The position numbers were made by a program, and so were the translations under genes. A stretch of 59,208 nucleotides of DNA, filler included, from Fonticula-like sp. SCN 57-25 (taxonomy: Eukaryota), in NCBI GenBank assembly GCA_001724245.1. It is 6 parts of 6 records of this genome, joined end to end, with 100 filler letters (N's around TTAATTAATTAA, not from the genome) between each part and the next. Parts side by side here need not be neighbours in the genome. Positions count along the whole stretch, not along the records: positions 37,958 to 47,082 come from MEDX01000271.1; positions 47,183 to 59,208 come from MEDX01000272.1; 4 more parts are not named here. The stretch is one strand, 5' to 3'. This document shows positions 33,866 to 55,802 of the stretch, in pieces. Positions within the stretch are counted from its first letter, which is position 1; each line of letters opens with the position of its first letter. Below the pieces are notes generated by a model. The model did no database searches. It was not told where the DNA came from and was given only the letters and a program-made list of their open reading frames with translations.

Positions 33866-36418
33866 ATGTCTGATCCACGCGCCGACCTCGGTCTCTCGGA
33901 CGGATCTGTCGCGGCAGGCATGCCGGCGCAGCTCCCCGTGATGGACGGCACCTCGTCCCGCCTCATGCGCCGCAACTCGGACGGCGCGCTCGAGGACGAC
34001 CTCGCGCGCTTTAGCATCTCGAACAACTACAGCGATGGTCCCAGCGGCATCGACGAGCCCGTCTCCATCGCGTACGCCTTACATTCGAGCCTGGCTGTTC
34101 CATTGACTGACACCTTTTGTTTCAGTCGCCGCTTTTACGCCGACTCGATCCGCCGCGATCTTGGGAGTCCCGGTGTCCCGCCGCAGTTCAACGGGAGCTT
34201 CCTTGACGACGACGACTCGTTTGGCATGTACGTGCCCCAGGCTCCCGGCGGTGGCCCTGCTCGCCAGCAGCAGCAGCAGCAGCAGCAGGCCTCTGGCGAC
34301 AAGCCCAACATGGGTCGCCGCGACAGCATCGGCGCCCTTGACCTTGCTCCGCTTGCCCAGACGCGCCACGGTGCGCGCAGCCAGATGCGCGGCGAGATGC
34401 CCGCGTGGGACGCGATGCGCCAGGCGCAGCACCCGTCGGCCCCCTTTGACGCCGGGCAGCACCAGCAGCGGTACCAGTCGCCCGTGCTCCAGCAGCAGCA
34501 ACAGCAGCAGCAGCACGCCATGTTTATGCGCATGCAGCAGCAGGGCGCTGTGGACCCTTATGCGCGCCCCGTGTACGCGACTGAGCAGGACTATACGCAG
34601 ATGCTCGCTCCCGTCAGCATGCACGGCGGCTTCCCGCACTCGACGTCGCCGTCGTCGTACGCTGACGAGTGGCTTCCCGAGGCGACTTCGCCGGTGATGC
34701 GCCGCCCGCTGCCCAAGTCTGTGTCGGTGCCGAGCAACCTGACGGACGCTGGCGATGCGCCGCAGCAGCAGCAGCACGCGCAGCACGGCATGCGCGGCGG
34801 ATGGGACAGCCACGGCTACGCGGCGGGTCGCCAGATGGGCGGCGCGTGCCGCTACTGCAAGAACGTGGGCTGCACCCGCGGCGAGCGCTGCCGCTACAAC
34901 TCGCTGGCGCCTCCGCAGGGCCAGATGGGTGCCTACAACGGCGGTGGCGGCGGCTCGCTTCGCCACTCGCCCGACCCGTCGGGTCATGACGGCGCGCGCG
35001 ACAAGGCTGGCTCGCGCTCCAACTCCAAGTCGCCCGGCGGCCAGCACGGCGGCAAGAGCGGTGGCGGTATGCACAAGCGCGCGCCGAGCGAAGGGACGCG
35101 CTTCCCACCGCTCGAGCAGCTCCAGGGCCAGATCTACCCGCTGTGCCGCGACCAGCACGGCTGCCGTCACCTGCAGAAGAAGCTCGAGGAGGGCGACCCG
35201 GCGCACATTGAGATCATCTTTAACGAGATTTACGATCACATTCTCGAGCTCATGAGCGACCCCTTTGGCAACTATCTTTGCCAGAAGCTCTTTGCGCACT
35301 GCACGGACGAGCAAAAGGTGACGATCACGCGCAAGGCTGCGCCCGGCCTCGTCGCTGTGTCGCTCAACATGCACGGAACGCGCTCGGTGCAAAAGCTGAT
35401 TGACTGCCTCAACACGGACGAGCAGGTGCAGATCATTGTCGAGGCGCTGCGCGGCAGCGTCGTGCCGCTCATCAAGGACCTGAACGGCAACCACGTCATC
35501 CAAAAGTGCCTGAACCGCCTGCGCGCCGAGCAGAACCAGTTCATCTACGATGCCGTTACGCAGAACTGCGTGGCCGTCGCCTCGCACCGCCACGGCTGCT
35601 GCGTGCTGCAGCGCTGCATCGACCACGCCAACGAGGCGCAAAAGATCCAGCTCGCTACCGAGATCACGTACAACGCGCTGACGCTCGTCCAGGACGCCTT
35701 TGGCAACTATGTCGTGCAGTACATCCTCGACCTCAAGAATCCGCGCTTCTCGGACGCGCTCATCCGCCGCTTCCTCGGCCACGTCTACGAGCTGTCCCTC
35801 CAAAAGTTCAGCTCGAACGTGATTGAAAAGTGCATCCGCGTCGCCGAGCTTGACACGCGCCGCGGCCTGATTTCCGGCCTGCTCGACAAGGAGCGCCTGC
35901 CGCACCTCCTGCAGGACTCGTTCGCCAACTATGTCGTGCAGACGTCGCTGGACGTGTCCGAGCCCGAGCAGCACGCCGCGCTCGTCGAGATCATCCGCCC
36001 GATCCTGCCGTCCATCCGCCACCTTCCCTACTGCAAGCGCATCCAGTCCAAGCTGTCGCGCGACGTTGCCCAGCCTCGCGATGGCATGGCCCCGCCCAAC
36101 GGCATGATGATGGGCGGCCCGCCGTCGCAGCAGCAGCAGCAGGCGCCCATGATGATGATGGGCATGCACCCGCAGCAGGCGCAGCAGCAGCAGGCCATGC
36201 ACATGGGCGGCATGCAGCAGGTGCTCCTCCCGTACCCGATGCAGCAGGCGCAGCAGCAGGCCCAGCAGCAGGCGGCCTTTGGCATTCCCGGGCACATGAT
36301 GGCGCCGCAGTACATGCGCGCGCCCATGCACGCCATGAACGGCCAGCAGATGCAGCAGGCGCAGCAGGCGCACATGTACGCCGCCATGCACTCGCCGTCG
36401 ACCGGCGCAACAGAGTAG
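33866..36418 (+). CDS. PUF4: Pumilio/PUF RNA-binding protein, Puf4/Puf5 type, with Q-rich termini and a degenerate CCCH finger
   Basis: Eight PUF repeats with recognition sets CRQ, NYQ, TRQ, NHQ, CCQ, NYQ, SNE, NYQ; CRYCKNVGCTRGERCRYNS upstream; probable in-frame intron ~34072-34125. Confidence 0.9.
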   Translation: MSDPRADLGLSDGSVAAGMPAQLPVMDGTSSRLMRRNSDGALEDDLARFSISNNYSDGPSGIDEPVSIAYALHSSLAVPLTDTFCFSRRFYADSIRRDLGSPGVPPQFNGSFLDDDDSFGMYVPQAPGGGPARQQQQQQQQASGDKPNMGRRDSIGALDLAPLAQTRHGARSQMRGEMPAWDAMRQAQHPSAPFDAGQHQQRYQSPVLQQQQQQQQHAMFMRMQQQGAVDPYARPVYATEQDYTQMLAPVSMHGGFPHSTSPSSYADEWLPEATSPVMRRPLPKSVSVPSNLTDAGDAPQQQQHAQHGMRGGWDSHGYAAGRQMGGACRYCKNVGCTRGERCRYNSLAPPQGQMGAYNGGGGGSLRHSPDPSGHDGARDKAGSRSNSKSPGGQHGGKSGGGMHKRAPSEGTRFPPLEQLQGQIYPLCRDQHGCRHLQKKLEEGDPAHIEIIFNEIYDHILELMSDPFGNYLCQKLFAHCTDEQKVTITRKAAPGLVAVSLNMHGTRSVQKLIDCLNTDEQVQIIVEALRGSVVPLIKDLNGNHVIQKCLNRLRAEQNQFIYDAVTQNCVAVASHRHGCCVLQRCIDHANEAQKIQLATEITYNALTLVQDAFGNYVVQYILDLKNPRFSDALIRRFLGHVYELSLQKFSSNVIEKCIRVAELDTRRGLISGLLDKERLPHLLQDSFANYVVQTSLDVSEPEQHAALVEIIRPILPSIRHLPYCKRIQSKLSRDVAQPRDGMAPPNGMMMGGPPSQQQQQAPMMMMGMHPQQAQQQQAMHMGGMQQVLLPYPMQQAQQQAQQQAAFGIPGHMMAPQYMRAPMHAMNGQQMQQAQQAHMYAAMHSPSTGATE

Positions 36419-37175
36419 GCCGTGAAAAGAGAGGCGCGGCTGTATCGAGGTTCGATTCCGGTCGGTCGCGGCGTCTTTTTTCGGGTTTGCTTTGTCTCGT
36501 GGGCGGGTCACTCCCCACGTGTATTGACTAGCCTATTTATATTCTCGTCTTTTTTCCATCGTTTTATACCGGGTCGCGCGAGGGTTATAGTGAACCCGCG
36601 CTGATCCTTACTCTATTCCTCTCTATGAATACTCTGCTATATTATCTCTTTCCTATTCTCCTCCCCTCTTGTCCCCTATGTATAATGCTGTTTCTTTTAC
36701 TCTCCCTTCCAACTCGAAACCAACTTCTTGTCTTGCTATTGGTTCCTTCTGTTGTTGGCTACCCCTTCTCGTATCGATTACGTGTACACCAGAAAATGCT
36801 CTTATTTCAGCGGCATGTACTTGTTTAGGGCGCTCGCTTTGTACCTCTAGTATGGATATGCGTGCCGCAGCAAGCACGGCTTTATAATAGAAGGCTCTTG
36901 TTCTCTGAAATCTGCCAACTGGACCAGAACTGAAACATAAAGTGACACAAAAGAAACTTACGAAAAAAGAGGTATTCGAATAGGCATGGCATGCGTCCTG
37001 ATAAAAACTGAAAACTACCAAATTACGTTATGAAATAGAACAGCACCCTTATATGTACACCTAGTAGGCATGAAAAGGAAGCAAAGGTCCCCTTTTCAAG
37101 GACCAGCTCCCTATGTGGCATCTGAAGGGGGCGTCGGACTTATGACTTTCATTCGCTTTCAATCCTCAAACAGAA

Positions 37176-37857
37176 ATGCTGACATCAGCAAATCAACCGT
37201 TACACTCACGTGATCAGATCTTTTCAAAAAGTGTCGCGTCGACCCGTCACGGCCCTTTCCCCTGCAGGGCCGTGCGCGCTCCCTTCGCGCGTCGCCCCGC
37301 CGCCGCCTCCGTGCAGGGCCCTGTGCCTCCCTGTGCAGTGCGTGTAGCTCTTGCTTGAATTTTTGTTGCCTCTTTCGGTATCATCCCGACTAGGTCCCAG
37401 TCATCGTGGCGCCTCTACGGGAACGCCCGGGCATCGAGCCGCAGGCGGTGCGCGATGCGCCGCTCGGCGCGCCCTTTTGCCACAAGCCGGTGCTCGTTGT
37501 GTCGTGCGCGTGCTGTGGGGCGATGCTGTCGCGGCGCGTAATGCGCGCGACGCTGCTGTCGACATGCGTCGATGAGCACTTTTCGACCGACTTTCCGCCC
37601 ACAGAGTGCGTGATGCCGTAATCATCATTGGAATCATATGAAAAATGTGGCTTGTAGTGCTGCTGTGTTACTTTTGACGTTTTCAATTGTAATTTAACTT
37701 GCTCTTTCATTATTTTTTCTGCTCTTGTCTGTGCTAATGCTGATGTGCACTTCTCCTTGCAGAAACACATCGTTCATGGGCCCCGACGTGTGGGACGACA
37801 ACTGCAACTGCCGCCGCTGCGACGTCTCCTGCAACCACTGCGGCAGCACTGTCGGCT
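37176..37857 (+). CDS. FAM72: FAM72 family protein (Yippee-like zinc fold), truncated by contig end; start uncertain
   Basis: CACCGAMLSRRVMRATLL..HFSTDFPPT|..CNCRRCDVSCNHCGSTVG parallels FAM72 CKFCKQVLSSRGMKAVLL..LFSTDIPPT..CKCKLKDIACLKCGNIVG. Confidence 0.8.
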
Positions 37858-37957
37858 NNNNNNNNNNNNNNNNNNNNNNNNNNNNNNNNNNNNNNNNNNN
37901 NTTAATTAATTAANNNNNNNNNNNNNNNNNNNNNNNNNNNNNNNNNNNNNNNNNNNN
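37858..37957. other. Artificial contig linker
   Basis: 44N-TTAATTAATTAA-44N. Confidence 0.98.
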
Positions 37958-39549
37958 CCCGACGCGTCCGTCCCGCGCCTCCTCGATCAGCTGCTCCTCC
38001 TCCTCAATGCCCATCTCGCCCTCAAGCACCGAAACATGATCGCCGTCTTTGCCAGCAATCACGAGGGGTGCGAGCGCGTGTTCCCGGTGGAGGGTGGGGC
38101 GTCGGCCGACGGAATGACGGCGAGGGAAACGGCGGCATTTGTACGCGAGCGATAATGGAGATCGGGTGGGGATCGGGTTGGGATCAGGTGGGATCAGCGG
38201 GGTGGCCGGAAGCGGTGAAGTAGATCGGAGGAAAGGAATGATATTATGACAATGTTATGGCAATATTGTGACCGATAAAGTCACGTCGGTTGTGGTATAA
38301 AAGTGCTAATAGTGTGACAATATTAGTTTTTTATCGCATATAACTTATTCGTTTCAGTGTCAGAATTCTAACCATATCCTTGCTAGCTTGGTGGAAAGTA
38401 CGAGCCATTCGCCCGCGCACAGCTCCACGTGGCCCGCCGCCTCCGCGAACTCCTTTCCGAACCCGCTTCCGAAAGCCACCGTACGATACACGTGACTGTT
38501 CATATCCATTTCTCACGTGACCATTGCAGAGGCGAATATGGCCGCGGCGCTGTCCATGGCCCTGTGCTACATCAACCGCGTATCAAGTGAGCACGTGGCT
38601 ACCCACGTGGCCGCCCGTATTGTTGTTATTTCTGTTTCACCAGATGCGCAAGTCCAGTATATTCCCACAATGAATTGCATATTCTCTGCCCAAAAGGCGG
38701 TACGTAAAAGGAAAGAGGGGAGAAGAGGGAGGGACGAGGGATATATCAATATATCACGTGATGCTATGTGTTCACGTGACAATTGAAGTCTGTATTTATC
38801 CTTCACCGCGTGGCCATTACCATGTGACACTAATTCCATTTTAGGGAATTCCTATTGATATTTGTTCGCTATGCGTGAGCGACTCTCTTTTCCTCCAGCA
38901 GGCGTCCCACATCACGCGCGGCATCTACCACCGTGTCGACCACGTGGACGCCCTCTCGCACTACTTTCTCTCCCTCTACAGCGTGGACGGCCACGTGCGC
39001 CGCCACCTTCACATGCCCGAGAGCGCCGACGTTGACTTTCGCGCCGCGTGCTTTTGCCACAGGCGCGTCATCGACAGCGGTTTCGTGTGCTCTGTTTGCC
39101 TCAGCAGTGCGTGAAAGGGAAAAGAGGAAAGAAATAGGGAAAGAAAAGGGGATTGGGAAGTAGATTATAAAGTATTTTGATTGAATGAAATAGTATTGGG
39201 TCAGTGATTGTATGGTATATTGATGATTGTATGGTCTATATTGATACTATTGATGATTGTCATTGATGAAGGTTATTGATGACTATGTCATGTATCATCT
39301 ATCTGTATCATCTGCTCGTGATGTCTCTCCTTGTCTTTCTACTTACCCCTTTTTCCCAATCCAGTTTACTGCAACAGGAACGCCGTCGTATGCTCCACCT
39401 GTGGGTACGCCCCCTTACTTATCCCTTTACCCCATTAACACACACATAGTGTGCGGTTCGCGCTGCAGCGGCCACGCCAGGTAACAGCAAGGGCACCCCA
39501 GCAAGCGTCACTCCTCGGCACGCCACGCAACGGCCACGTGGCACAGTGA
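37958..39549 (+). CDS. TFB4: TFIIH subunit TFB4/GTF2H3 (p34), 5' truncated, multi-exon
   Basis: LNAHLAL, ALSMALCYINR, QYIPTMNCIFSAQK, FLQQASHITRGIY, VDFRAACFCHRRVIDSGFVCSVCLS, CSTCG. Confidence 0.93.
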
Positions 39550-39928
39550 TGCCCTTTTCGCCCCTCTTTCGATGTACATATTGGCTCATTAATAGAAATT
39601 CATCTTCTGTGTATTTCTCGTGGGTTTCTTTTCCTTTCCACACAAAAAGAATAAGAAAGAAAAAAAGTCTAGCAAAGCAGTTTTATCACCAAACAAAGAG
39701 CACCGGCGGCGAACCACGTGGCAGAAACGAGAGAGATAGCGGCAAAAAGCCGCCGCCAATCACGCGCCCCCAGTGGCCGCACGCACATGCGCGCATTGAA
39801 AGAATGATGAAAAGGAAAAAGAAAGAAAAAGTGACGTTTAAGATGCGATCGGCCGACACACGCGCCACAGCCGCCGCCCCGAAAGGAGACAACTACACCA
39901 CGTGGCCTTCCTCACCATCCCCGCCGTC

Positions 39929-40957
39929 TTAGCAGGGGAGGTTCTCGCTGGCCTTGGTGTTGAGCACGAGCGAGATAATCAGACCGTAAAGCGCAAGCAC
40001 TTCGGCGAAAATGAGAATGAGCACCATGGAAACGAACACACGCGGTTGCTATAAATAGAGAATGGCAGCGTGAGTATACATGGCCGTGTACTTTTATCGA
40101 ATGACGCACCTGGGCAGAGCCACGGACACCAGCATCACCGACAATACCGATGGAAACACCGGCGGCGAGACCGGCGAGGCCGACCGAGAGACCGGCACCG
40201 AGGGAAAGGAAACCGCTGTAAGGTGAGTTAGCGAAAACTGCAAACCGGACATGCACAAGAAAAGTAAAAAGAAAGAGGGCAAAAGGGCGATTGACACGCG
40301 ATGACCAAAGGCCAATCATGTGCAAAGTAGCTAAAGCGCAATAAGGCGCAAAGAAAACATAAAAGCACAAAAAAGAGAATAGAAGAGGAATGAAAGAGGA
40401 TCGGGGCCAAATGGGACGCAACGGTTCCGTAATCGGATTCCGTATCGCCATGGCATGCCCCGAGATTTTCATTGAAGGCAGAGTTTAGGACGTACGCGTA
40501 GAGAGTGTAGTCGGTTTTGACTAGAAAAAATAATGTCAGCAACCTGTCATGCAGCAGCGCGCGGTGAGCGTACGGGAAGAGGTGATGAGCACACCGACGA
40601 CGAGGCCGTAAATGGCGATAATACCCGCCATGACGACGGGAATAATCGACTTGATGGCGAGGTCGGGGCGGAGGACGGCGGTGGCCGCAACTCCGACGCC
40701 CGACTTGGCAGTGCCGTAGGCGGCGCCGAGCGCTAATAACAAGGAAAAGAGAAGCAAGCGTCAGCTCATTGATCGTATGACAGCGATTTTCAACGGCAAT
40801 ATCACGAGCGCAAATAATCAACGAGATCCCCTTTTCTTTCCCGCTACACTAAAACTGTCCAATGAAACGCACAGGTGAAGATGACGGCAGAGGCGACACC
40901 CATGACCGCAAAGAACGGCGCGTAGACCGGGCAGAGCTCCGTAGGCAAGGTCGACAT
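39929..40957 (-). CDS. VMA3: V-ATPase proteolipid subunit c (16 kDa), multi-exon
   Basis: [62 protein letters not shown]. Confidence 0.96.
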
Positions 40958-41230
40958 GGCTCTTTTTTTTTCCTTACTGCACAACCAATTTATAAGCAAA
41001 AATGGTCGGCAAAAAGGGCGTCAGCACAAAGAGCGCACCAAAAAAAGGAGAGAGAAAGGTGGGTTCTTTTTCGAGCGGTTTAGTTCGAAAAGAAGAGTGG
41101 GTGCCACGCGCTAGCCGAGATCCCTGAGAAGAAAGGGAAAGGGAAGCAAACAACAAGGTCCACTAAAAGGAAGAAAAAAGGGAAAAAGACGAGAGCGCAT
41201 ATGGGTCCAAAACTGGTTTTCCCCCCTTCT

Positions 41231-41310
41231 GATTGGCTCAATCCACTTTAATTTCAATCGCGATTGGACCAACGGGGCTGTGACAGGCGTGCTGGTTTGT
41301 TCACGTGGGA
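41231..41310. promoter_or_regulatory. CCAAT boxes and CACGTG upstream of VMA3
   Basis: GATTGG at ~41231 and ~41262, TCACGTG at ~41301. Confidence 0.4.
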
Positions 41311-41687
41311 TCGAATCTGATTTGATCGATGCGACAAGGCGGCGGAAAGCGTCGCGCGAAAGTAGAAGAAAGGGCGAAAAAGAGAAAAGAAGACTCAAAA
41401 CAAAGGAAAAATAAAGAGCAAAAGGTGGTTTTATTTTCCCTGCATTTTTTTGTATTCAAAACAAGAGGAAAATGTCCAAATAGGCACGATTGCCAGTTTC
41501 CCGCCAAGCCTCAGCGATCCATATGTCCATATTTTATTGATCCATACAATGAAATACCGTATGTGATATGCTAGATAGAACAAAATATAAATGTCGGCGC
41601 CATTCAAAGGGCAAAATCTCTACACGATTGACTACAAAACGCGTTGTCTCTGACTTTTTCTTTATCGTCTCTCTGATTTTACCGCGC

Positions 41688-43602
41688 TCACACGGCCAGC
41701 GAGTCGCCGCTCTCCCTCCGGACGCCCTCGGCCGGCACGCCCATGTCGCTCGAGCGGCGGCTGTGCGCGCTGGCTTCGCTGCTCCGCCGCGAGCGGAAGC
41801 GGTTGACGGCGCGCATCACCGTCATGAGGTTGGACATGTTGCGGATCGAGCCGATCGAGCGCGCAATATCATCGTCAGTCACCTCAATGCTAGAGAGAAA
41901 GGCGGGTCAGAGAGCAGAAACATTATTAAAGTGCAGCAAAAGACATAAAATAAGCAAAACAGTAGGCATAAAAAGCACAAATCAGACGACATATGCTTCC
42001 ACAAGTATTCCACATATCATCCCATGGCCCTGCAACTGCATGGCGTACCGGCTTCCGTTGCAGTTCTCCTCCGTGCTCGGCATGGCCACCGCCCCTTCCT
42101 CGGTCACCCACGGGTGAGCCTACCACGTGGCCGTGTCAGTCACCTTTCCCGCCAATTATTTCCCGCGCACCTTCATGTCATTGATGCTGAGGCGGTCCTC
42201 TGAGCTGCGCTGCATCATGCCCAAAATGAGCTGATGAGCGCCCTCGCCCACGTGGTTGGGCACCTCAATACTGCGCCTGTTTAGCAAGCCAAAAATACAA
42301 ACAAAAAGCGTACGGGTCGTTCTTGATGGCCTCGTAGGTCATGTAGACCGTGTCGGCCTTGAACGGCACGCGGCCGGTCAATAGGCAAAAGAGCGTCACG
42401 CCCATCGCCCAAATGTCGGTCCGCTTGGCCGAAAACGTCTCATTGTCGTCTACGAATGGCGAAATTAATGTCAAAATGAATATGAAAATCGCATGCGTTT
42501 AGGGTGCGTACCGCGCGCGACGAGCATCTCGGGCGCCATAAAGGCGGGGCTGCCGGCCGTCTTGCGGATGCCGTCCTCGCCATTGTTGTACTCCTACAAT
42601 AGTGTGAGTGCAAACTGGTCTTAGTTTGCGGGGCGTACCTCGGATACGCTAAAGTCGCAGAGGAGAACGTCGCCGGCGGCGTTGACGAGGAGGTTGTCGG
42701 GCTTGATGTCGCGGTGAGCAATGTCCTGGTAGTGAACTGCAAGCGTGTTAGAGTGCAAATAATGGCAAAAAGATGGCATTGTAAAAAAAATGGGTGGGAA
42801 GAGACAAAAATTACGGCTAAACACGCTGACAAAGCCCTGTAGCGTTGACCAGACCTTGAACCACAACAAAGAAAAAAATATTGATATATTAATTCGTACG
42901 GTATTCAACGCCGAGAAGCAACTGTCTAAACACCTTGCGGGCGTACGCGTCCGAGAGCGGCTCGGCGGCCTCCTTTCCGTCGAGGCTCATGACGACGCCG
43001 TTGGGGGCGAGCTCGAGCACTGCAGACAAAGATCACTTGCGTTAGACATCGCCACGCGCAATCCCGCTGCCGCGCGCGCACCCATGTAAAAAGCGTCCGT
43101 CTCGTCGTTGTTCAGCACCTCGATCAGCTTGAGCACGTGCCGATGCTGCAGCTTCTTCATGATGGCAATCTCGCGACGGATAATGTCAAGCGGATCCTTC
43201 TGCGCCACAGGCTAACAAAAAAACGTCAATTAAAAAAAGAATAAATAAAGAGGAGCGGTCGTACCGGGGCGCCCGGGGGACGGCGGCCCATCAGGCGAGC
43301 ACCGCCAGCCTGACGCTGCAGGCGAGCCTTGCTAACAACCTTCATGGCCTGCAAATACAACGGTCAAAAGGGAAAGCGTCACAAAAAATGATATAAAAAC
43401 GTACGAATAACTGCCCAGTCTCGCTGTCGGTTACGCGAAAGACGCTGCCGAAGGCGCCTTCGCCGAGCTTGCCGTGCACCATGTACTGGTTGATCTGCTC
43501 GCCATCGTCGACATCGCCATCGGCGCCGGTGACGTTGGTCGTCTCGCCGCGGAACTCGACCGTCGGCGTGACGTTGATCTCGGGAGCAGCGGCGGTCGCC
43601 AT
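41688..43602 (-). CDS. Ca2+/calmodulin-dependent protein kinase kinase (CaMKK/Ssp1-like), multi-exon
   Basis: INQY..GEGAFGSV, Arg/Pro-rich insert, REIAIMKKLQH, HRDIKPDNLL, DFSVS, AGSPAFMAPE, DIWAMGVTL; C-terminal EVTDDDIARSI..VMRAVNRF autoinhibitory/CaM-binding-like segment. Confidence 0.88.
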
Positions 43603-44231
43603 GGCTGCTTTCAGAGAAAAGATAGAGGGAGGGGAGGGCACAGCGTCAGTTGCACGTCCGGATCCCGAATGCGCAGTGACGGAACAAACACGCTGTGGCT
43701 GTTTTGAGTTCCTGGGATGCAACCAATCAGGACGCGATGAATTGCCTATTTGGGACAAACTGTTCCTAATATGGTCGTCGTGCTGCGGCTTCTGATGCGC
43801 GATTGGATGGAAACGGCGGGAAATTTCAAATGCGGAAGGGGAACAATCCAAAGAATGCCTGTACATAATTATGGATAGAGTAAACCGCGTCTGTAGACGC
43901 TTCACACTGTAATACCGCAACGCAACAATGTCGCAAACAGTATGATTATCGATGTAAGCGCACAATACTGCGTATATTACAGTACTCGTTGGTTCTGAAT
44001 TCCTCTCTTTTACGACCCCAAACGCGTCAGGGATGGAAAAGCAGGCATATACACACAAAACTCATTAACTAAACAATAAATATAACCAAACCGGCTTGAC
44101 CCATGCACTTGCGGCTCCACTACCGCATAGCTGCACTCGCAAGCTCGGTATATTCAGGGTCTTACATGTCTTCAAATGGTAGCACGTGATCAAATCACGT
44201 GGATTTACCCGCGCGCACGCATCGCCTCGAG

Positions 44232-47082
44232 ATGGGCGATCGGTCGTCGTGGTTATTCAATGAGGGCGGCGGCGGTGGAGGCGGACCACCGTCCGCGCCT
44301 CGTCCTCTGCCTCCTTCATCTCTTTCTTCTGCCGCTGTACCACCCCCTTTCACTCTTCCTTCGCCCGAGCAGGCTGCCTACCTCGCATCCCTGATGCCGA
44401 CGGACCCCCGCCGGGATCCCCGCATGGCGAGCAGCGGCGCCGGCGCCGCGCGCGGAGCCGACGCGCCCGTTGACCCCCGTCATGATCCCCGCATTGCCGC
44501 GGCAGCAGCGGCGGCGGCAGCGGCGACTATTGCGGCGGCGGGATCCCACGGCGTTGCATCGAGTGGGTTCCTCTTTGGTGTTGGCGGGCCGACACCAACA
44601 GGCACTATGGACTACTCTACTGCTGCTACCGCCGCTGCCGCTGCTGCTGCCGCCGCCGCCGCCGCCGCCATTGATGACGATTCAATTGGTGGCGGCGCGA
44701 GGGGAGATGCGGGGTACGGCCGGGACCGCGACGCACCGCGGAGAGGCAGCGGATCAACCTCGCAGGAAAAGGAGCGTCGTCCCTCCGAGTCGGACAGACA
44801 CGTCCACCGTCCACGTGGTCAGTATGACTCTCCACGTGGCCGTGATGACCTCCCACGTGGACGCGATGACGCCCGCGATTCTCATTCACGTGGACGCGAC
44901 GGCCCCTGGTCGCGCGACGCCGATAGATACTCACCTTCGTCATCACGCGAGCCCCGTGGATCATCCCCACCACGTGGCCGTCAACATGATTCTCGCGGGA
45001 AGCCGCGGGAGCGCTCCCTCTCGCCGCCGCGCCGCCCAAGCACACCCTCTGAATCTGGATCCACAACCGACCGATCCGGATCTGACAAGAAGCGCGCCGC
45101 TGACGCTCCCTTGTCGCACGTTTCGCCTCCTCTGAAGCGGATGTCGTCGGGCGGCGTGAACGCTGTGCGAACTGCGCCGCCGCCGGTGGTGCGGGATTCG
45201 GTGGCGGTGGCGACGGCGGAAAGGAAGTCGCCGGCGCCGCTGTCGGGGATGCCAAAGATACCGACGCTCAAGACGCCGTCTGCAAAGTCACCAGTGTCAT
45301 CAAGTACGACCACTACGTCAAGTTCATCAAAGACACCATCATCAAGTGAGCCAAAGACATTGACACCGACGTCGTCAAGTGCACCAAAGTCATCGACACC
45401 GACGTCATCGAGTGCATCAAAGACACCAACTGGATCAAGTGTACCAAAGACACCAACGACGGTATCAAGTGAGAAGACGCTGGCGTCATCTGTATCAAAG
45501 TCGACATCAGGAGGTGAATCAAAGACGCCAACGTCATCAAGTGTGACAAAGACATCAAGTGCGTCCCCGGCGACGTCAAGTGTGACAAAGCCATCGCCTT
45601 CAAGTACGTCAAAGGCGCCGACGGCGTCAGTGCCAATTACAACGCCAAAGCCAATCACTGCGCCGGCAAAGGCGCCTTCATCGGCTCCGATCACTGTTAC
45701 CAAGCCCAAGCCAACGACACCCGCTGAACCCAAACCTTCTACGCCAATTACGTCATCAAATGCTCAATCTACGTCATCGGTCACGCTGCCAACGCCGCCG
45801 ACGCCACGAGTGGTCAACGTCGACCACGCATCATCATCTTCATCGACGCCATCATTGACATCATCACCGTCGTCAGCAATGACGTCATCGTCTAATTTGA
45901 ACAGGAAGACGGTCGAGCAGCAGCTCTTGGACGACCGCGCGACGCGCCTCTTTATGGAGCGCCTGCACGACAAACTGGCGGCGCATCCGTCGGTCAAGAG
46001 TGGTGACGTTGGCGGCGTCGACGAGTATGGGACGATCGTGTTGCGCGACGCGGTAAAGTGGTGGCCGCCGTGGCGGTACGCCGACAAGCACTCGATCAAC
46101 CTCGAGGACAAGGTCGTTCTAAAGTGCGCTTGCGGAACAGAAAATGGACTGTTTTAGTAATGGGATTGGATGGGAATTAATGAAATCAGGGATCAGATGT
46201 CTTTTGTTTGTTTGTTTGGCACTTTACGCTTTCATTGTCGCTGCTTTTCCACTTGTTCTCACATCACGTGTTCCAGACCTGCGCCCGACTTTGCTCGCTT
46301 GGCGCGCAAGGCCAAGAACAGCGTGAGCATCACGCTGACCGACTACTTGTCCAGCGTCGATGCCCTCATCAAGCGCGTCCTCTTCCTATGGGCGCCCTGG
46401 ACGGAGCAGCACGTGGCCGCTGTGGTGCGTTTTCATTGCCCCACGCCCACCAAACATTTGCTAACCTACTGCCGACTCGTCCAATAGGAATTCCGCAATG
46501 CCTTTAAAGAGTCGCTTTTCGCGCCCGATGTGCCCGCCCACGTGGTCCAATTTGTAGCTGACGCGCATCTCCGCGAGGAGGCGATCGCGCCAATGGCCAT
46601 GCCGCGCCGCCGCGCCATCAAGCAGCGCTTCACGACGTCATCAGAGTGCGCCCACGTGGCACTTATATTGCCGCTGACGTGTCGCGCGCCAAAAATAGGT
46701 TTGAGATGATGCGGACACGGCTGGAAGGGATCGCGTCGGCTTACGGCGACCAATCACGTGTCTTCTTCAAGTACCTGACGATCTCGCTGATCGCGAGCGA
46801 CAGTCAGCGCAACTTTTTGCGGCGTGTCAGCGTTGAGGCGGTGCCGCTCTACGGCCAAGTCATCAAGGAGCCGTCATCTCTCATGGTACGTGGCCACGTG
46901 GTGAAGTGTTGTGCACTATGGCACTATTGATATTCTATCTGTCCATGTATGCCCCTTACTGACACGTGATTGGTTTGCAGGACTTGGCTGCGCTTGTCGA
47001 CGCGTCCGGCCCGTTTGATGTTGTCCAATTCGCGACCGAGTTTTACCTTATTATAGAAAACTGCTTTTACTTTAATGCTATG
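44232..47082 (+). CDS. Large low-complexity protein with C-terminal bromodomain, truncated by contig end
   Basis: DPRRDPR motifs, R/S/D-rich and S/T/P-rich tracts, then spliced exons ending NFLRRVSVEAVPLYGQVIKEP..FATEFYLIIENCFYFN (bromodomain-like). Confidence 0.65.
45296..45610 (+). repeat. Degenerate coding repeat (tcatcaagt...aagacacc) encoding SSS..KTPT units
   Basis: More than ten (a)tcaagt units at roughly 30-nt spacing. Confidence 0.65.
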
Positions 47083-47182
47083 NNNNNNNNNNNNNNNNNN
47101 NNNNNNNNNNNNNNNNNNNNNNNNNNTTAATTAATTAANNNNNNNNNNNNNNNNNNNNNNNNNNNNNNNNNNNNNNNNNNNN
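47083..47182. other. Artificial contig linker
   Basis: 44N-TTAATTAATTAA-44N. Confidence 0.98.
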
Positions 47183-48271
47183 ACCTACAACCTCAACAAA
47201 ACCGTCATGAACCTCGTCGAGGAATACCAAACAATCCCGGAATTCCCAGGAAACGTCTATTTCGATACTGGTTCATATCATCGTGCCGTCGATGACGATC
47301 TTTTTACCGCGTGGCGCCCTTTTCACCCCCTATCACCTGGTGACTATTTTGGGCTCGACCTTTTATATGTGAGGGCGCACGCGAGGATTTCATTGGTGTG
47401 CAGCCAGCCAATCGAAATGTTTTATATAGAGACAAGTGTCGGTGGTCACAAGTGGTCACGTGCTCTCTATACTGTTCATCAATTACTCACCCTAACACCG
47501 GGGATTTCGCTGTATGAGCTGCAGCTGCCCACGTCATCAGTTTTCCGCTTTGTCCGCTTCGTGGCGGGGCCGAGATTTGGCGGGAAAGCGATAAGGGCGG
47601 ATGTGTATGACGTCAGAGAAGGCTGGTTTCTGATTGGCTCAGTGCCGGTTTTCGGTGTCAGCGTTTACTCGGGGGCGTTCTTGGAAAGAAGGCCGGAAGG
47701 CGAAGAATATGCGACATTGGAAAGATGGCGCGCAAATGTCGTCGAACTTATGAGGTCAAATCCTGTCCACGTGGTCGGTGATAATTCTGTCCACGTGGCC
47801 GGTGAGCGTGTTGGTGGCGGGAAAGCGGAAGAGGCCATGTCGCTTTCGCCGCTCGCTCTGACCACGTGGACGGTCGATCAGAATGTGCTGCACGTGTACA
47901 GCGCAAATGGCGGGAAATTCTCTTTGCTTGGAAGCATGACGATTGGTCAGAAAACGGCCGCGCCACTTTTGGTCACGTGCCGCTTATCTTCCGATGCGCG
48001 CCAAGTGTCCAATCACAACGAAGCGGGTTTATTCATCATCATTGACGTCATGCTTCAGGATGGCACGTGGATTCACGGGGCTCAGGTGATCGTGTTCTCT
48101 TCTGGCACGCATGGCCCTGAGCTGCAATTGGTCAGGTTGACGTATCAGATGCCGGTGCAGTTGATCGTGTTTTCTATTAATGTGTTGCATCATCATGGTA
48201 TGGTTGTTATCGATGATATCGCGGTGTCGGAGCAGGTGGTTGTTGATGATAGGGAAAATGATAGGAAATAG
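47183..48271 (+). CDS. C-terminal part of a paralog of the adjacent glycosyltransferase-like gene; two putative carbohydrate-binding beta-sandwich domains
   Basis: YHRAVDDDLFTAW...GDYFGLDLL and FRFVRFVA shared with the 49050-51288 gene; terminal DGTWIHGAQ..FSSGTHG...VIDDIAV CBM-like segment; 5' end lost at contig start. Confidence 0.6.
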   Translation, partial: TYNLNKTVMNLVEEYQTIPEFPGNVYFDTGSYHRAVDDDLFTAWRPFHPLSPGDYFGLDLLYVRAHARISLVCSQPIEMFYIETSVGGHKWSRALYTVHQLLTLTPGISLYELQLPTSSVFRFVRFVAGPRFGGKAIRADVYDVREGWFLIGSVPVFGVSVYSGAFLERRPEGEEYATLERWRANVVELMRSNPVHVVGDNSVHVAGERVGGGKAEEAMSLSPLALTTWTVDQNVLHVYSANGGKFSLLGSMTIGQKTAAPLLVTCRLSSDARQVSNHNEAGLFIIIDVMLQDGTWIHGAQVIVFSSGTHGPELQLVRLTYQMPVQLIVFSINVLHHHGMVVIDDIAVSEQVVVDDRENDRK

Positions 48272-48639
48272 GAGATAAAAGGGAAAGTGGTGGTGCAATA
48301 TGTGCATTGTTATATAGAAATTTTGTCGGAATTTGATATGGTTTTTATTGTTTTTATTGTTTTTTTACTTTTTTTCTTACTTGTTTTTTACTTGTTTTTT
48401 ACTTGTTTTTCACTTTTTCATATTTGTTTTTCTTATCATTTTCGTGGAATACTTCCACTTTGTTTGTTCAACTATCGCATTGATTACTGTTATCTAAAGT
48501 GGCATGCTGACCGATCGTCGCTCACGTGATCGCCACTCAAGGTAGTACTGCACTTTTTTTTCTATAAACAATCACTCATATTTGAAAGTTGTTTCTTTGC
48601 TTGGCGCTCTCTTTGTGTCCTTAATAAAGCAAGTAAATT

Positions 48640-48850
48640 GATATTGACCCTATTGACTTTAGATACAGTATTGACCATAATAACTTTGATATTGACCATA
48701 TCGTCTCATAGAGTATTGAAACACATATCCATATCAGATATTACAGTATCAAATACTGTAATGTACTTGGATTGACCATCATATCTGCATCATATAGATA
48801 CATATCAGATATCTAATATATGACCATCATATTGACCATCATATAGATAT
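48640..48850. repeat. Degenerate ATTGACCAT(CATAT) repeat in AT-rich intergenic region
   Basis: attgacc(a) units at ~48643, 48670, 48691, 48771, 48832 and related variants. Confidence 0.6.
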
Positions 48851-49049
48851 TCATTGTTGACACAATGATGAAATTCTCTTTTTTGTTGACACATTCACTT
48901 TGAAAATACTTCTTTGATATCATGGACAAACATGCCAAAATATAATCAATTTTGTTCTAAATTGATCTAAAACACTCATTTCTGGTCCAAATTGTATTCT
49001 TTTTTCATCCAAATATCATTTTATTCTCCTTTTCTCTTCCTTACAATAG

Positions 49050-51288
49050 CTAATATGCCACTCTTCTCGCCGCACTCGCACACCTCCCCACACTCACCCC
49101 CCCCACCCTAAACCTCTCCTCTGCCATTCCACTCTCCGCCACAAACCTCACATACCTAAACACACATTCCTTCACATTCCCAACCAACACATATTCATAT
49201 TTATACCCACTCATACCATTTATACCATTCTTGGAATACCCACTTTTAGTATCAAGTTGCCATGTGCACCGTGACTCATCCCAGAAATCATTCTCATCGC
49301 GCACTTGAACACGCAACTTTTCCTGGAATTCATGATAGACGGTCACGTGCAATGACGTACATGCGTCAGCATTCAAAATATCAAGGCCGAAAAAGTCGCC
49401 TTGGCGGATACCGACAGAAGATTCCCAGTAGGTGGATGGGTCAGGGTCTACGGCCATGTGGTAGGGGTGGGCGAGGAAGGGCGTGCGATCGTAGAGGAGT
49501 GAGGCACGTGACTCGACGACGGTGATGTTGTCGCCGCGGTGGTAGAGGAAGGAGGAGGGGGAGGGGAAGTTGCTGGGGTTGGTCAAGAAAAGACACGTGT
49601 CGTCATGGCAGGGGGCACTATTGAAAAGGTATGAGGGTTAGGAAAAGTGGCATAAAAAGATATGAAAAGAAAGGACAAACATAAAAAGTGGCATGAAAAG
49701 GTATGAAAAGTATCATAAAAAGGTATGAAAAGGTATGAAAAGTGGCATAAAAGAGTTCATAAAGAGTGTCATAAAAAGTGTCATAAAAAGTGTCATGGCA
49801 TAAAAAGTGACATGAAAAGTGTCATAAAAAGGTATGAAAAGTGGCATGAAAAGGTACGAAAAGTGACATAAAAAGGTATAAAAAGTCATAAAAAGGTATG
49901 AAAAGTGGCATAAAAAGATATGAGGGACAAACATAAAAAGGTATGAAAAGTGTCATAAAGAGTGTCATGAAAAGTGCCTTGGCATAAAAAGTGGCATGAA
50001 AAGTGTCATAAAAAGGGTCATGGCATGAGAAGAGGCATGAAAAGTGTCATATAAAGGTATAAAAAGTGTCATAAAAAGTGTCATAACAAACTACCATACA
50101 AACTACCATAAAAACGTTGTTCCCAGCGAGGCGTGTGGTGCGCGACGGGAAAGAGCGGGTCATTTGCCTTGAGGCGGTCGTACAAAATGCGCGCGCCGGC
50201 AGTCTATAAAAACGCACAAAAAGGCACAAAAAAGCGCGCCAAATCACATTTTAGACTCATTTTTGCACATTTTTGCTTTAAAAATGCGTCAAAAACGTAC
50301 CATGTGATGCATATTGCGTGCAATTCCGCCTTGTTCGCTACTAAACCCGAACCGCTCCTCTAGCTCGACGAGCGTCGTCTCGAGCTGGTACGGCACCTGG
50401 TTCATCCAGGTGGCAAAGTACATGTCGGCGAGCAGCGCATCCGTCTCGTTCAGGTAGCGCAGCTGCTCCATGAAGCGCACGACGGCGGCCTTGTCGACAA
50501 TGGCGCCGGTGCCGAGCCACGAAAAGCCCGAGTGCATATTCACGGCTGCAGGCGCGCAACAAAAAAACACGTCAGCGGCGGCGACCGCGGATCTGATCGG
50601 CAGAATCTGATCGTACCGGGTTCGAAAAATGACCATGCCCATGTCAGGTAGTGCACAAACTCGTTCGTGATGGTGTGCAGGAGATGCGGGCTGCGGAGAA
50701 AGCTAGAGTACATGGAGCGCAGCCAGTCGTTGCGCCAATCGTCATCCTGAAAGTAGCAGTAGTCGCCGGCGGACATGAGGCATGCGGTGTAGCGCGCGAC
50801 AAAGTACTTGTTTTCCTTGGAGTTGATGATGCGCATCGGGATCGGGAGCGGCGCGGCAAAATCCTGTGCGGGAAAGGAAAGAAAAGATCAGCGAGCGCGC
50901 TAAAGATCGCCAAGGCGTACGGATTCGGTTAGGGCGCGATCTACGTTGTTGTTCCAGACGACCATGTCGACAGTGAAATCAGAGTAGCGCTGGACAGACT
51001 CGACCACTTTCTGAAGCGAGTCCACGCGAATGTAGCCGAGCAGAATAATAGAAAGCCTATTTTTGCGGCAAAATGCGCACGCAGGTATCAGTCAATGCCG
51101 GCTCGCGCGCGTCAGTTGGCGATCGCGTACTTTTTTGGAAGACGAATGTTGCGCTTTCCAAATTCATTCTCACTTGATTCGCCCGAGCGAACAGCCGAAA
51201 TAATAAAATACTGCAAGACAAGGATAGCCAAAATTGCAAAGCACAGCCGCTGCGTGCGGTTGAGCCGCGTGAGGCCCCGGGCTAGCAT
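49050..51288 (-). CDS. Type II membrane glycosyltransferase-like protein (GT-A fold) with C-terminal discoidin/CBM-like domain, multi-exon
   Basis: N-terminal signal anchor (RLCFAILAILVLQYFII), LSIILLGY, VVWNNN, CYFQDDDW (DxD), FSWLGTGA, LADMYF; C-terminal YHMAVDPDPSTYW..GDFFGLD. Confidence 0.7.
49620..50112. repeat. ~490-bp degenerate minisatellite (AAAAGTGKCAT / AAAAGGTATG, 10-11 nt) forming an intron
   Basis: Dozens of aaaagtg(g/t)cat and aaaaggtatg units in tandem. Confidence 0.9.
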
Positions 51289-51851
51289 GGTGGAATGTCA
51301 AGCTGTCAACCTGAAATGCCCCTCAAGTTTTTGTTACGATCCGCCACATGGCCAACCAGCGAGGGTTTCGATCACGTTCTTTTCCTGCCTTTTCTGTGCG
51401 CAAAGCGGCTAATGTATGCAATAAAAGCAGATAAACAGCTGAAAAAGAAGGCTGGCACCACAAAAGTTCAATAAAAGCATACATTCGCCCATTGTTACAA
51501 ATAATGCTAATACTACCTTCTAGACAGGTACGCGCGCGAATTGGTCGTTCTCGTCCTAAAACAACCAAAGCGGAATAGAAACACAGTAAATATCCATATG
51601 AAACATATATGTAACTCAAATCAAAACTAGGAATATATAAAGCTCAGCTTGCCAGACACAAACACGTCCCTTTCAACAATTCTATGCGAAAAAGTCAACG
51701 ACGAACGTGCGTACGATATCAATAACAACAACAATGAGAACGATAATGAGAACGATAATATCCAACTCAAAAATACATATAAATCCGTCTTTCGCGCGCA
51801 TATTCCTGCCACACTTTCTTCTTCACTTTCTTCCACCCTTTCCCGCCACAT

Positions 51852-52804
51852 TTACCCTGTCTTTGCCAACGGAATGCCGCTATTCCTGAACGCCGCCTGC
51901 GCCGCGCCCTGCTGCTGCGCCGCCACCGCCCCGAAATACGCCGCCGCGAGCTGCCGCTCCGCCCCGTTGAACGCCCCCCTCGACGCCATCACCTGGAATG
52001 TCTGGTCCTGCATGAGCGCGCCCGCCGCCCGCGTGCACTCGCGGTCCTTGGCGGCCTGCTGCGCGAGCATCCGGTACTCGACCTGCTGCGCGGCCGCGCG
52101 CTCCTCGAGCGACAGCGCATAGTCAATCCATAGGCTGCACGAGTTGTACATTTCTTGGAGCTGCGCGCGAAGGATTGTCTTGTCTTGCTCGTCGGCGGCG
52201 CTCCGCAGCTCTGAAGAGCCGAGCATTTCTTCTTGGGAGCGCTCGCGCTTGAGCTGCGTCGTGCTCTTGGCCTTGCGCGATATCAAGGCCATGAGCTCGG
52301 GGCGGTTGCGCACAAAGTTGGGGTGCTCGAATTCCCAGCGGCGCTCGCCGTCCTGCTGGCGCGCGACAGTTAAGCGAGAGGTAAAAGGAGAGGAAAAGGA
52401 AAAAAGGGGGGCGCACGTGGACGGCGGTCATGTCGGCCACCTTGCGGAAGCCGTACATGTTTAGCTGGCGCACAAAGCTCGAAAAGTTGTTGTGCTTGTA
52501 GTAGCGCGGGAGGACCTGGGAGGAAAATTGGACGGGGTTGGTCACTTCGAACCGCGACGAGTGCGCGTCGACCCATTTTAGTAGAGGGCACTTGTCGTGC
52601 TGGATGATCCTTTATGGGGTGACAAACGCGTTAAAAAGGTGCTTTATATAACAAAAATAAAGCGCACTGATAGAGCTTTGCCAGAAAGGCCGATACGGGG
52701 CGATCCGTGACGATGCCGATGCCGTTGTGCGTCGGCGACCCGCCGTGATCGCTCATTGGCGACGAGAGCGAGTCGACAGAGTCGCCGAGGCCGGGAAAGT
52801 CCAT
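51852..52804 (-). CDS. HSF-type DNA-binding domain transcription factor
   Basis: [50 protein letters not shown]; following coiled coil; 3' end uncertain. Confidence 0.88.
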
Positions 52805-53522
52805 CTGGAGCGGCGGCGGGCGCACAACGTGACCCGCGCTGCTGCTTGCCCCCCCGCTGGCGTGGGGATCACCGACAAGCTGCTCTTCAAAAAAGATGCC
52901 GCCCGCGGCGAGCGCATCGGCGGGGGCCGCGGCGGATGCTGCAAAGAGGGGCGACGCGCAAAATTAAGCACTCGCGCGGCGGATAGCGCTTCAGCGGCGC
53001 ACCTGGCGTCGACCGGCCGATAGAATCCTCGAGCACGTACCACGGCCCCGCTAGCCCGTCGCCTGCAAAGTTTGCCCCCATCCTCCCCGGCGGCTCGCTC
53101 TTGATTGGCGATGCCGTTCCCGCCATATTGTATGATATATATCACTGTCGCACTCACTTTCCTGTCTCCGCCTCCTCGCTCAGGCCTTGCTCTGCACCCA
53201 GTCTGCGCGCTGCACTTTCACCTGACTTGCCACCCCAATTATCAACGTGAAAAACACTGGGGGCCTCTAGGGGGGCGCTGAGCACTGTATCAAACAATTA
53301 TGGCAGGTGGGAAGGTCGCCCCTGAAAGGATCCGATCTATATCACAAATCGACTAAATAGGCTTGGCTTTTCCTATAAAGGAAATGTTTGTGCTGTAAAA
53401 GGAAATATTTTACACACGGTTGTCACAGGGCTGTGGCTCCTTCTGGCTAAGAATCAGCCCCCGAATCGTACCCTGAAGGTTGGTGTTTGGTTCTGGTGCC
53501 GAGCGACCGCGGCGGGCCTGGC

Positions 53523-54761: not shown

Positions 54762-54896
54762 GGCGGCGCAGCAAAGTGTTTTGTTCATTTACTTTTAAAC
54801 ATATTCACGGTTGAGAATGAATATAATAGAGAATACTTTTTCGGCCTGATTTATTGCTAAAAACACTCTAAACACAAGGCGGGGATCGCCAGCTGC

Positions 54897-55403
54897 CTAA
54901 TAGTCGTCGGCGGTGCGGTTGATGTTGTACTTTGCGTTCATTTCGTCGCGCGTGCTGGACCACTTGCCCGACTCCTTGGGCGTCTGCTCGTCAAAGAGGC
55001 GGTTGTAGTCGTCGAGGAGCGTCTGCTTCTTGCGCTGGTTGCGCTTGTGGCAGCAGTACCAGATCCAGCACGTCATGCACAAAAGAAGGCCGAGGCCGAC
55101 GCCGAGAACGACCCACATGACCGTCTGGCCCGACACTACGCATTACAAAGTGAATAAAGAGTAAAAATGAAGAAAAATGTGCGTACGCTTGCACTGCCCA
55201 GACTGCCATGAGGTACACGTCTCTTGATCCGCGGGGCCAATAACGGTGCCCTCGGCGCACGTTCCCTGATCGCCGCACCAAACGCACGAATCAATCTTCT
55301 GGGCGCAAGTTTCACAGTCCGAGTACTGCGAGCACAAATCCTGGGCGCTCGCAATTGCCAGCAGCACGGCGAGCGCGGCCACCTTTAGAAAAGACGCGGC
55401 CAT
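54897..55403 (-). CDS. PTTG1IP: PTTG1IP-like PSI-domain single-pass membrane protein
   Basis: Signal peptide, CSQYSDCETC..CVWC..C..C..W..GQC PSI domain, TM helix ending CC, tail RDEMNAKY; one intron. Confidence 0.75.
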
Positions 55404-55802
55404 CTCGATCACAGAGGTGGTGTTGGTCAACGAAACACACTACGGCCACGTGGTGGGGATGACATCGCATTCTATTTTTGATGAGTCAGCATGTCGGAGG
55501 CGGCGGCGGCAGCGCGGCCCCGGGGGCGCTGAGCTCGTGTGTCGGGCCCTTTTCGCCAGAGGAGACGGGCGGTGAGTGAGGCATTCATGGCGTCTTTATT
55601 AGCCTGTACAAGGGCATGTCAAAGGTGACATAACACAGGATCCTGCCTGGCGGCCCCTCCCGGCTCGCGCCCCCTCAAAGCAGCAACCCCTTGCAGGGCG
55701 GACATTTGAGAGAGGGAAGGAGACGATGACCAGCAGTTCAAGTCATCGAGCTCCTTGATATATTGGAGGCAACCTGAAACGCGGGTTTGTTTTGTTTCAG
55801 CC

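Follow-up and report, generated by a model that had tools for sequence, protein, structure and literature searches.

A local CACGTG-rich domain overprinted on exons, introns and spacers in a putative fungus-like opisthokont

Why would a six-base palindrome occur about eleven times as often as expected in one stretch of a eukaryotic genome, in exons as well as in introns and spacers, and what kind of agent could have placed it there? This question is raised by the CACGTG sites in a window of 59208 bases (the whole stretch of DNA analyzed, along which all positions are counted) from one uncultured organism, recorded as Fonticula-like sp. SCN 57-25 (GCA_001724245.1). The window, together with one contig of about 1.2 kb from a close relative, was the sequence examined. 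It consists of six pieces (1-9171, 9272-18440, 18541-27679, 27780-37857, 37958-47082 and 47183-59208), and the element under study, which is interrupted by the artificial spacer at 47083-47182, is the following.

38426..49599, no strand: CACGTG-rich domain, 41 sites, about 3.7 per kb or about one per 270 bp

Local excess of a symmetric hexamer

An initial annotation, made by eye, had counted 41 CACGTG sites in 38426-49599, with 12 of them in 38426-39904, five in 44812-44976, seven in 46265-46968 and seven in 47457-48069. All of these counts are exact, as are those for the areas described as poor in the motif, with four sites in 20860-27250 and none in the PUF open reading frame (ORF) at 33851-36418. 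Dinucleotide shuffles of the domain lead to an expectation of 3.7 sites, about 11-fold below the observed number, and none of 300 shuffles reached 41. The excess is found on both sides of the spacer: 38426-47082 holds 30 sites against 2.9 expected (largest 9 in 1000 dinucleotide shuffles), while 47183-49599 holds 11 against 0.63 (largest 6 in 1000). Shuffling within 300-nt blocks changes these expectations little, to 3.1 and 0.65, and Markov models of orders 1 to 3 predict 3.1 to 6.6 sites for piece 5, where 30 are observed. The whole window contains 70 sites against 20.5 expected (largest 34 among 100 dinucleotide shuffles); when 70 sites were placed at random, none of 20000 placements put 41 within 11174 nt. 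Additionally, CACGTG is the top-enriched 6-mer when the domain is compared with the rest of the window.

The strong enrichment is local, because the other 47 kb carries only 29 sites against 16.3 expected, a 1.8-fold excess comparable to that of ordinary coding-related hexamers; GTCGAC, CTCGAG and GAGCTC also lie about 2.5-fold above dinucleotide expectation there. The next CACGTG beyond the domain is at 52414, so that 49600-51500 has none, and piece 1 has six in its 9171 nt.

Tandem duplication, which the initial annotation had named as a possible explanation of the clusters, does not account for them. Two short arrays, a 21-nt unit repeated 2.9 times (44810-44870, three sites) and a 24-nt unit repeated twice (47759-47805, two sites), cover five domain sites at most, and merging all sites within 30 nt of each other leaves 34; a tandem-repeat or microsatellite origin is not supported. 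A mobile mini-element was likewise considered and rejected: site pairs share at most 14 nt, apart from two pairs in inverted orientation with 21 and 17 identical bases, and the sites are therefore not copies of an element. The two exceptions join unrelated places (44961-44981 with 55442-55462 for the 21-nt pair, 44806-44822 with 47858-47874 for the 17-nt pair) and could reflect micro-conversion or chance in similar coding context.

The signal is specific to the full hexamer. Of the 46 occurrences of CACGT in the domain, 41 continue with G, compared with 29 of 66 elsewhere, and the end variants CACGTH/DACGTG are scarce, with seven in the domain against 75 in the rest (about 18 when scaled for length). 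The preference continues symmetrically into the flanks of the 82 half-sites, where C stands at -1 in 43, G stands at -3 in 41 and a purine is favoured at -2, on both sides, giving the looser extended consensus G-R-C-CACGTG-G-Y-C. Accordingly long words are strongly over-represented in the domain: CCACGTGG occurs 17 times against 0.21 expected, and CACGTGGCC occurs 11 times against 0.15. Part of the C/G flank bias must stem from codon structure, because coding hexamers such as GTCGAC are 2.5-fold up outside the domain. The commonest form in G+C-rich sequence is CCACGTGG, with TCACGTGA-type forms in A+T-rich sequence. As a separate observation, the 47 kb outside 38426-49650 contain CCACGTGG 12 times against 0.93 expected and CACGTGGCC seven times against 0.48 by dinucleotide shuffles, and beside the partial effect of codon structure the extended word may be weakly preferred across the genome.

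Companion motifs are enriched as well. TGACGT, a second motif with an ACGT core, is present 23 times in the domain against 6.3 expected, ATGACGT 11 times against 1.7 and CCAATC 16 times against 7.1, each count being reached by none of 300 shuffles. The recurrence of these motifs, which had been noticed earlier, is thus real, and it is weaker than that of CACGTG.

Overprint of coding and non-coding sequence

Gene models for the domain were worked out from the sequence by us, and exons and introns are given as predicted. The features along the domain are listed here.

37958..39553, + strand: Tfb4 (TFIIH p34) gene, truncated at its 5' end where the piece begins, two exons matching Pfam PF03850
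Tfb4 exon model, from sequence reading: ..38141, 38388-38480, 38531-38702, 38845-39108, 39363-39404, 39450-39553
39554..39927, no strand: convergent spacer between Tfb4 and V-ATPase c, 374 nt, two sites (39715, 39899)
39928..40760, - strand: V-ATPase proteolipid (subunit c) gene, identified exons only, Pfam PF00137
42118..42264, no strand: short spacer between ORF 41677-42117 (+) and the kinase gene (-), two sites (42124, 42249)
42265..43650, - strand: protein kinase gene made up of several short exons, three exon ORFs matching Pfam PF00069
44183..44976, no strand: 7-site cluster, two sites just upstream of the long ORF and five read as (Pro/Ser)-Arg-Gly, three of these five in the 21-nt repeat 44810-44870
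44232..48271, + strand: long gene with an Arg/Ser/Thr-rich region and a discoidin-like C-terminal part, from sequence reading
Long gene exon model: 44232-46121, 46277-46428, 46488-46645, 46699-46886, and 46981-47082 joined in phase to 47183-48271
48272..49049, no strand: AT-rich island between convergent discoidin-like paralogues, with the window's lowest G+C (0.31 to 0.33 in 500-nt windows), one site (48523)
49050..49637, - strand: ORF paralogous to 47183-48271, 30% identity over 110 residues, E 6e-07
49642..49976, no strand: A-rich tandem array with units of about 12 and 22 nt and higher-order periods of 53 to 131 nt, directly past the last domain site

By these models, 25 sites are exonic, 8 are intronic and 8 lie in spacers or untranslated regions (UTRs), which bears out the earlier claim that the palindrome is overprinted on exons in all three frames and on introns, and extends it to 3' spacers. 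Density is comparable in the two parts of the three site-rich genes, with 24 sites in 5026 nt of exons and 8 in 1098 nt of introns. Tfb4 has six exonic sites, each in the frame CAC|GTG for His-Val and together making up all six His-Val dipeptides of the protein, and two more in each of the introns 38481-38530 and 38703-38844; the long gene has 15 exonic and four intronic sites, and the paralogous ORF at 49050..49637 has three, one per frame. The kinase gene carries a single exonic site (43134), again His-Val, and 39905-41301 is free of CACGTG.

The exonic sites fall into frames 0, 1 and 2 in the proportion 13/8/4. The 13 of frame 0 are read as CAC-GTG, His-Val; 8 are read as xCA-CGT-Gxx (Pro/Ser-Arg-Gly/Val/Ala), through rare CCA/TCA-CGT codons; and 4 are read as xxC-ACG-TGx (Thr-Trp or Thr-Cys). 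The readings made initially, namely EHVATHVA in Tfb4, Pro-Arg-Gly through CCA-CGT and Thr-Trp/Thr-Cys, are all found in the gene models, and the claimed rarity of CCA-CGT was confirmed in five reference genes, where CCA makes up 10 of 190 Pro codons and CGT 8 of 222 Arg codons.

Neither codon usage nor the order of codons produces these sites. Tfb4, ORF 44190-46157, ORF 47183-48271 and the paralogue together hold 22 sites, compared with 5.8 in synonymous shuffles and 2.4 in codon-order shuffles, while five control genes elsewhere show no excess, with two sites in 9.5 kb against 1.9 (synonymous) and 3.6 (codon-order) expected. The effect reaches the proteins themselves. The domain coding sequence contains 14 His-Val dipeptides where 4.8 would be expected, and CACGTG encodes 12 of them; in the controls there are eight against 10.4 expected, with four of the eight encoded by CACGTG. 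Similarly, Pro-Arg is written CCACGT in 4 of 18 domain cases and in none of 21 control cases, and Ser-Arg is written TCACGT in 4 of 11 and none of 19, respectively. Two His-Val positions of Tfb4 lie in a widely alignable exon, and His-Val was found there in none of 50 homologues; these positions are variable, and the EHVATHVA stretch lies within a loop of variable length and sequence. The overprint of CACGTG has changed both amino acids and codon choice in these proteins.

The initial annotation had placed the signal at the level of DNA, and the excess indeed survives dinucleotide, 300-nt block, synonymous and codon-order shuffles as well as Markov models of orders 1 to 3. The CACGTG signal acts at the DNA level, and neither composition nor codon usage nor tandem duplication gives rise to it. 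A factor-type palindrome that alters amino acids and forces rare codons in a core gene such as Tfb4 points to a DNA-level force rivalling protein and codon constraints in a eukaryote, and a force of this kind has so far been documented mainly for bacterial iterated palindromes. Literature searches at the level of search listings found no paper describing an overprint of eukaryotic coding DNA by CACGTG or CCACGTGG.

A putative array of binding sites and the alternatives

The domain coincides with a trough in the G+C content of third codon positions (GC3). GC3 is 0.34-0.73 for ORFs located at 36.6-51.4 kb and 0.76-0.89 for most longer ORFs at 9.7-36.4 kb and past 51.8 kb, and among the genes tested the range is 0.58-0.71 in the domain versus 0.76-0.89 in the controls. 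V-ATPase subunit c is usually a highly expressed gene, and yet its GC3 here is 0.69, from which the trough would seem to be regional and not an effect of expression. The window's most A+T-rich stretch, 48201-49050 with G+C of 0.31-0.35, also lies inside the domain; the A+T-rich spacer between the convergent discoidin-like ORFs, about 780 nt long, is about twice the length of the 374-nt spacer between Tfb4 and V-ATPase c. Low GC3 alone was considered as the cause of the motif and rejected, as piece 1 contains many low-GC3 ORFs with only its six sites and 49.6-51.5 kb contains none.

The reading that we favour, with a probability of roughly 0.4, is that a chromosomal domain is marked by a putative site array for a dimeric protein which binds E-box/G-box sequence. 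A sequence-specific force on DNA would have introduced CACGTG into a single stretch of about 11 kb, at a mean spacing of about 270 bp, and the sites would have settled where constraint allows, at variable protein positions, in introns and in 3' spacers. A sequence-specific dimeric protein is suggested because the signal is hexamer-specific, palindromic and symmetric, and the candidate agent is a DNA-binding protein of the class-B E-box/G-box type (bHLH-Zip or G-box bZIP). Its sites may form a homotypic binding array that marks a GC3-poor, hence probably recombination-poor, domain, and they would not be ordinary promoter elements. We infer here the binding of a protein, its identity and the role of the bound domain. 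Should a protein bind the sites, the locus would illustrate how a dense array of intragenic sites can define a chromosomal domain.

Class-B E-box/G-box sites are bound by bHLH-Zip or bZIP dimers such as Cbf1, Pho4, USF, Myc-Max and the plant GBFs. The domain resembles them in the CACGTG core and may do so in its symmetric flanks, with C at -1 and G at -3, a preference that codon structure explains in part. It differs from known E-box/G-box clusters, which comprise a handful of sites in promoters or enhancers, in having 41 sites, 25 of them exonic, with amino acids changed and rare codons used. No HLH or bZIP domain was found among 56 window ORFs scanned against Pfam.

Several findings weigh against a binding array. 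With 25 of 41 sites in exons, the location is not the non-coding one of known regulatory site clusters, and the even spread across exons, introns and UTRs is as compatible with a weak drive at work everywhere as with selection for binding. The array has gaps, and the two best-conserved genes of the domain, V-ATPase c and the kinase, hold zero and one site. Low GC3 does not by itself bring CACGTG, as piece 1 and 49600-51500 demonstrate. Finally, the retention of sites in the close relative carries no statistical weight, since about one change would be expected in 54 site positions and none was seen.

This relative is represented by a 1176-nt contig from another assembly, which is 96.6% identical over 1161 nt to window positions 38133-39282. 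It retains all nine sites of the overlapping part and carries one more, a tenth, at a place where CGCGTG in consensus flanks stands in the window. The contig establishes that the sites are real in two assemblies, and it says nothing about selection. It came from a metagenome scan with a Tfb4 exon, which returned this one close fragment and five distant loci of 36-50% protein identity; the distant loci, from other eukaryotes, carry 0 to 0.4 CACGTG per kb. Compared by eye, contig and window have diverged very unevenly, with most substitutions in Tfb4 intron 1 (38142-38387), where about 20 are accompanied by two indels. The next two Tfb4 introns (191 nt) differ by three substitutions, and the intron that follows exon D has none in its first ~170 nt, before the contig ends.

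Two suggestions of the initial annotation concern recombination hotspots and the HIP1 palindrome; these systems, together with yeast centromeres, are compared with the domain here. Factor-dependent meiotic hotspots of fission yeast are activated by the M26/CRE motif ATGACGT and by CCAAT, and to our knowledge CACGTG is not among the described hotspot motifs. The domain resembles these hotspots in the enrichment of ATGACGT and CCAATC alongside CACGTG. Unlike a long-lived hotspot under GC-biased conversion, however, it is poor in GC3, which is the opposite footprint; on the usual reading of GC-biased gene conversion, a GC3 trough, taken as a proxy only, would indicate less recombination and not more, which weakens the proposal of a hotspot domain. 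Yeast centromeres lie in GC-poor troughs. Point centromeres of budding yeast with CDEI and Cbf1, and small A+T-rich fungal centromeres, are described in passages of PMC13462599 and PMC7025860. Like the Cbf1/CDEI type, the domain has the core motif adjoining the most A+T-rich kilobase (48.2-49.05 kb), within a GC3 trough and beside a tandem array; unlike point centromeres, it has no CDEII/CDEIII architecture, contains active-looking genes throughout and has 41 sites instead of a single CDEI. A centromere-adjacent location, suggested by the Cbf1-type motif, the A+T-rich core, the trough and the tandem array, would be an analogy by resemblance alone.

HIP1 (GCGATCGC), the highly iterated palindrome of cyanobacteria, lies within coding frames. 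Passages of PMC5861425 describe it as hyper-abundant genome-wide, 15- to 300-fold, with more than one motif per gene. The domain is like HIP1 in that a short palindrome far exceeds expectation and is not restricted to non-coding DNA, and its local density of about one per 270 bp is of the same order as the more than one motif per gene given in those passages (PMC5861425). It is unlike HIP1 in being a eukaryotic nuclear locus with introns and in the confinement of the strong excess to about 11 kb of the 59 kb of genome examined; the close analogy drawn at first is weakened here, the remainder behaving as for ordinary coding hexamers.

A drive of the HIP1 kind, acting through no binding function, is nevertheless the most serious alternative, although we consider it somewhat unlikely. 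Motif-specific repair, modification or biased gene conversion would turn near-sites into CACGTG, opposed only by purifying selection; bound or modified sites might, for example, escape breaks and serve as conversion donors. Similar density in exons, introns and 3' spacers, the restriction of sites to tolerant protein positions and the scarcity of end variants are what such a drive would leave behind; the sole site difference from the relative's contig is one CGCGTG/CACGTG transition in consensus flanks, and the inverted pairs with 21 and 17 identical bases could be traces of micro-conversion. The 47 kb outside the domain show no genome-wide effect, however, and it is not obvious why a bias in repair should stay within 11 kb. 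Nor does general methyl-CpG decay drive the excess: the observed/expected ratio of CpG is 1.22 inside the domain and 1.23 outside, with no depletion, so that both the decay of CGCGCG into CACGTG and a general process of CpG methylation and deamination are set aside. If the sites do spread by conversion bias, they would represent a new kind of selfish sequence dynamics. A more specific version, which we regard as quite unlikely, combines drive with binding: CACGTG sites occupied by a Cbf1-type factor would avoid meiotic breaks or otherwise gain from over-transmission through gene conversion, and as they accumulate they would come to overwrite codons. The outcome would be a recombination-cold domain, possibly adjacent to a centromere, that surrounds the A+T-rich core at 48.3-49.0 kb, and the palindrome would be a eukaryotic counterpart of the iterated palindromes. 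The undescribed intragenic DNA code proposed in the initial annotation is a possibility.

The remaining explanations fare worse. An improbable one is a foreign or introgressed segment of 11 to 15 kb, acquired by hybridisation or transfer from a CACGTG-rich relative of lower GC3. The GC3 contrast between tested genes of the domain and their neighbours would fit, as would a differing k-mer make-up and a tetranucleotide correlation of only -0.06 to 0.28 between 47183-49982 and the other pieces: CAGCAG/GCAGCA/CTGCTGC words number 8 to 11 in 38426-49650 against 36 to 42 expected from the rest, a depletion in step with the domain's differing codon usage. The segment, however, carries intron-bearing and presumably single-copy core genes (Tfb4, V-ATPase c), its V-ATPase c and kinase exons have codon usage typical of the other pieces, and introgression only shifts the question to a donor, of which no similar sequence was found, the other Tfb4 loci being nearly devoid of sites. 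There is a slim chance that the motif acts in RNA, as a self-complementary CACGUG in pre-mRNA or mRNA through copy-copy pairing or an RNA-binding protein. Predicted exons and introns contain 33 of the 41 sites, up to 7 of the other 8 lie in possible UTR spacers, and three of the nine introns have a site starting close behind the donor; in both two-site Tfb4 introns the predicted fold pairs both copies, one with z = -2.7. Folding support is inconsistent, though, because the short Tfb4 intron is no better than shuffles (z = -0.6) and another two-site intron leaves its copies unpaired (z = +0.4); the flank preference is symmetric, as for a DNA palindrome, and the transcribed neighbours V-ATPase c and kinase do without the motif, save for the one kinase site. 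Trivial causes, meaning base or codon composition, amino-acid repeats and tandem duplication, have an almost negligible share. They could claim the three sites in the 21-nt repeat, the two in the 24-nt repeat and part of the C/G flank preference, in keeping with the frequency of GTCGAC, CTCGAG and GAGCTC outside the domain, but the 34 sites left after merging stand against 3.7 expected, the excess survives every type of shuffle, and 16 of the 41 sites lie outside predicted exons. The leftover probability is assigned to mechanisms that we have not thought of.

Window, genes and organism

The pieces of the window are separated by artificial spacers.

9172-9271, 18441-18540, 27680-27779, 37858-37957 and 47083-47182: artificial spacers, each 44 N + TTAATTAATTAA + 44 N

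Pieces 5 and 6 are probably adjacent, because exon 46981-47082, which follows a GTACGT...GCAG intron, runs in phase across the direct join into a 362-codon ORF that starts with the first base of piece 6. At the join of pieces 4 and 5, the Tfb4 frame is open from the first base of piece 5 and is in phase with an open frame that extends to the final base of piece 4; this part of piece 4 was considered as the N-terminus of Tfb4, but neither Pfam nor tblastn supported it. The other three joins are likewise compatible with contiguity, and the pieces are probably consecutive in one sequence.

The window genes are eukaryotic with short introns. By Pfam-type content, the domain contains Tfb4, V-ATPase subunit c and a protein kinase, and elsewhere the window encodes a HAS1/DDX18 helicase, a FERM/RA/PH protein, a PUF protein and an SPA/DENND11 protein, together with a CPSase small chain, TPT, a DAG kinase, a P4-ATPase, a bromodomain protein, a P450, NDK and a LIM-binding protein. 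The long gene at 44232..48271 has no Pfam match, and its F5/8 type C match (score 0.88) is a lead only; its last ORF, 47183-48271, has no homologue at E 0.001 or better. A non-coding RNA scan found no tRNA and no Rfam family in the window.

The organism appears to be an unsampled fungus-like opisthokont, because identity to fungal and animal proteins reaches no more than 62-75% for its helicase, and a protein search with its Tfb4 exon gave, apart from the window's own protein, no match of more than 55% identity. Parts of the sequence were matched in several bioreactor, wastewater and other metagenomes, in which the organism thus recurs, and a search of sequencing runs points to a bioreactor metagenome as its possible source. 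The order helicase/HMG/TPT is that of the sex locus of early-diverging fungi. Genes for a HAS1-type RNA helicase and a TPT transporter lie 2 kb apart at 12238-17364, and a sex-locus-like synteny was considered there and rejected, since only NDK and a LIM-binding protein stand between them and no HMG box does.

The nine intron donors identified all follow GT-R-CG-Y (GTACGC, GTACGA, GTACGT, GTGCGT, GTGCGC), an unusual consensus for the 5' splice site, and in three of the nine introns a CACGTG begins 7 to 8 nt past the donor.

38142, 38481, 38703, 39109, 39405, 46122, 46429, 46646 and 46887: intron donor positions

Additionally, 42144-42168 and 47564-47588 form an inverted 25-nt match of 76% that includes TTTCCCGCC/GGCGGGAAA, which we take to resemble an E2F-type site.

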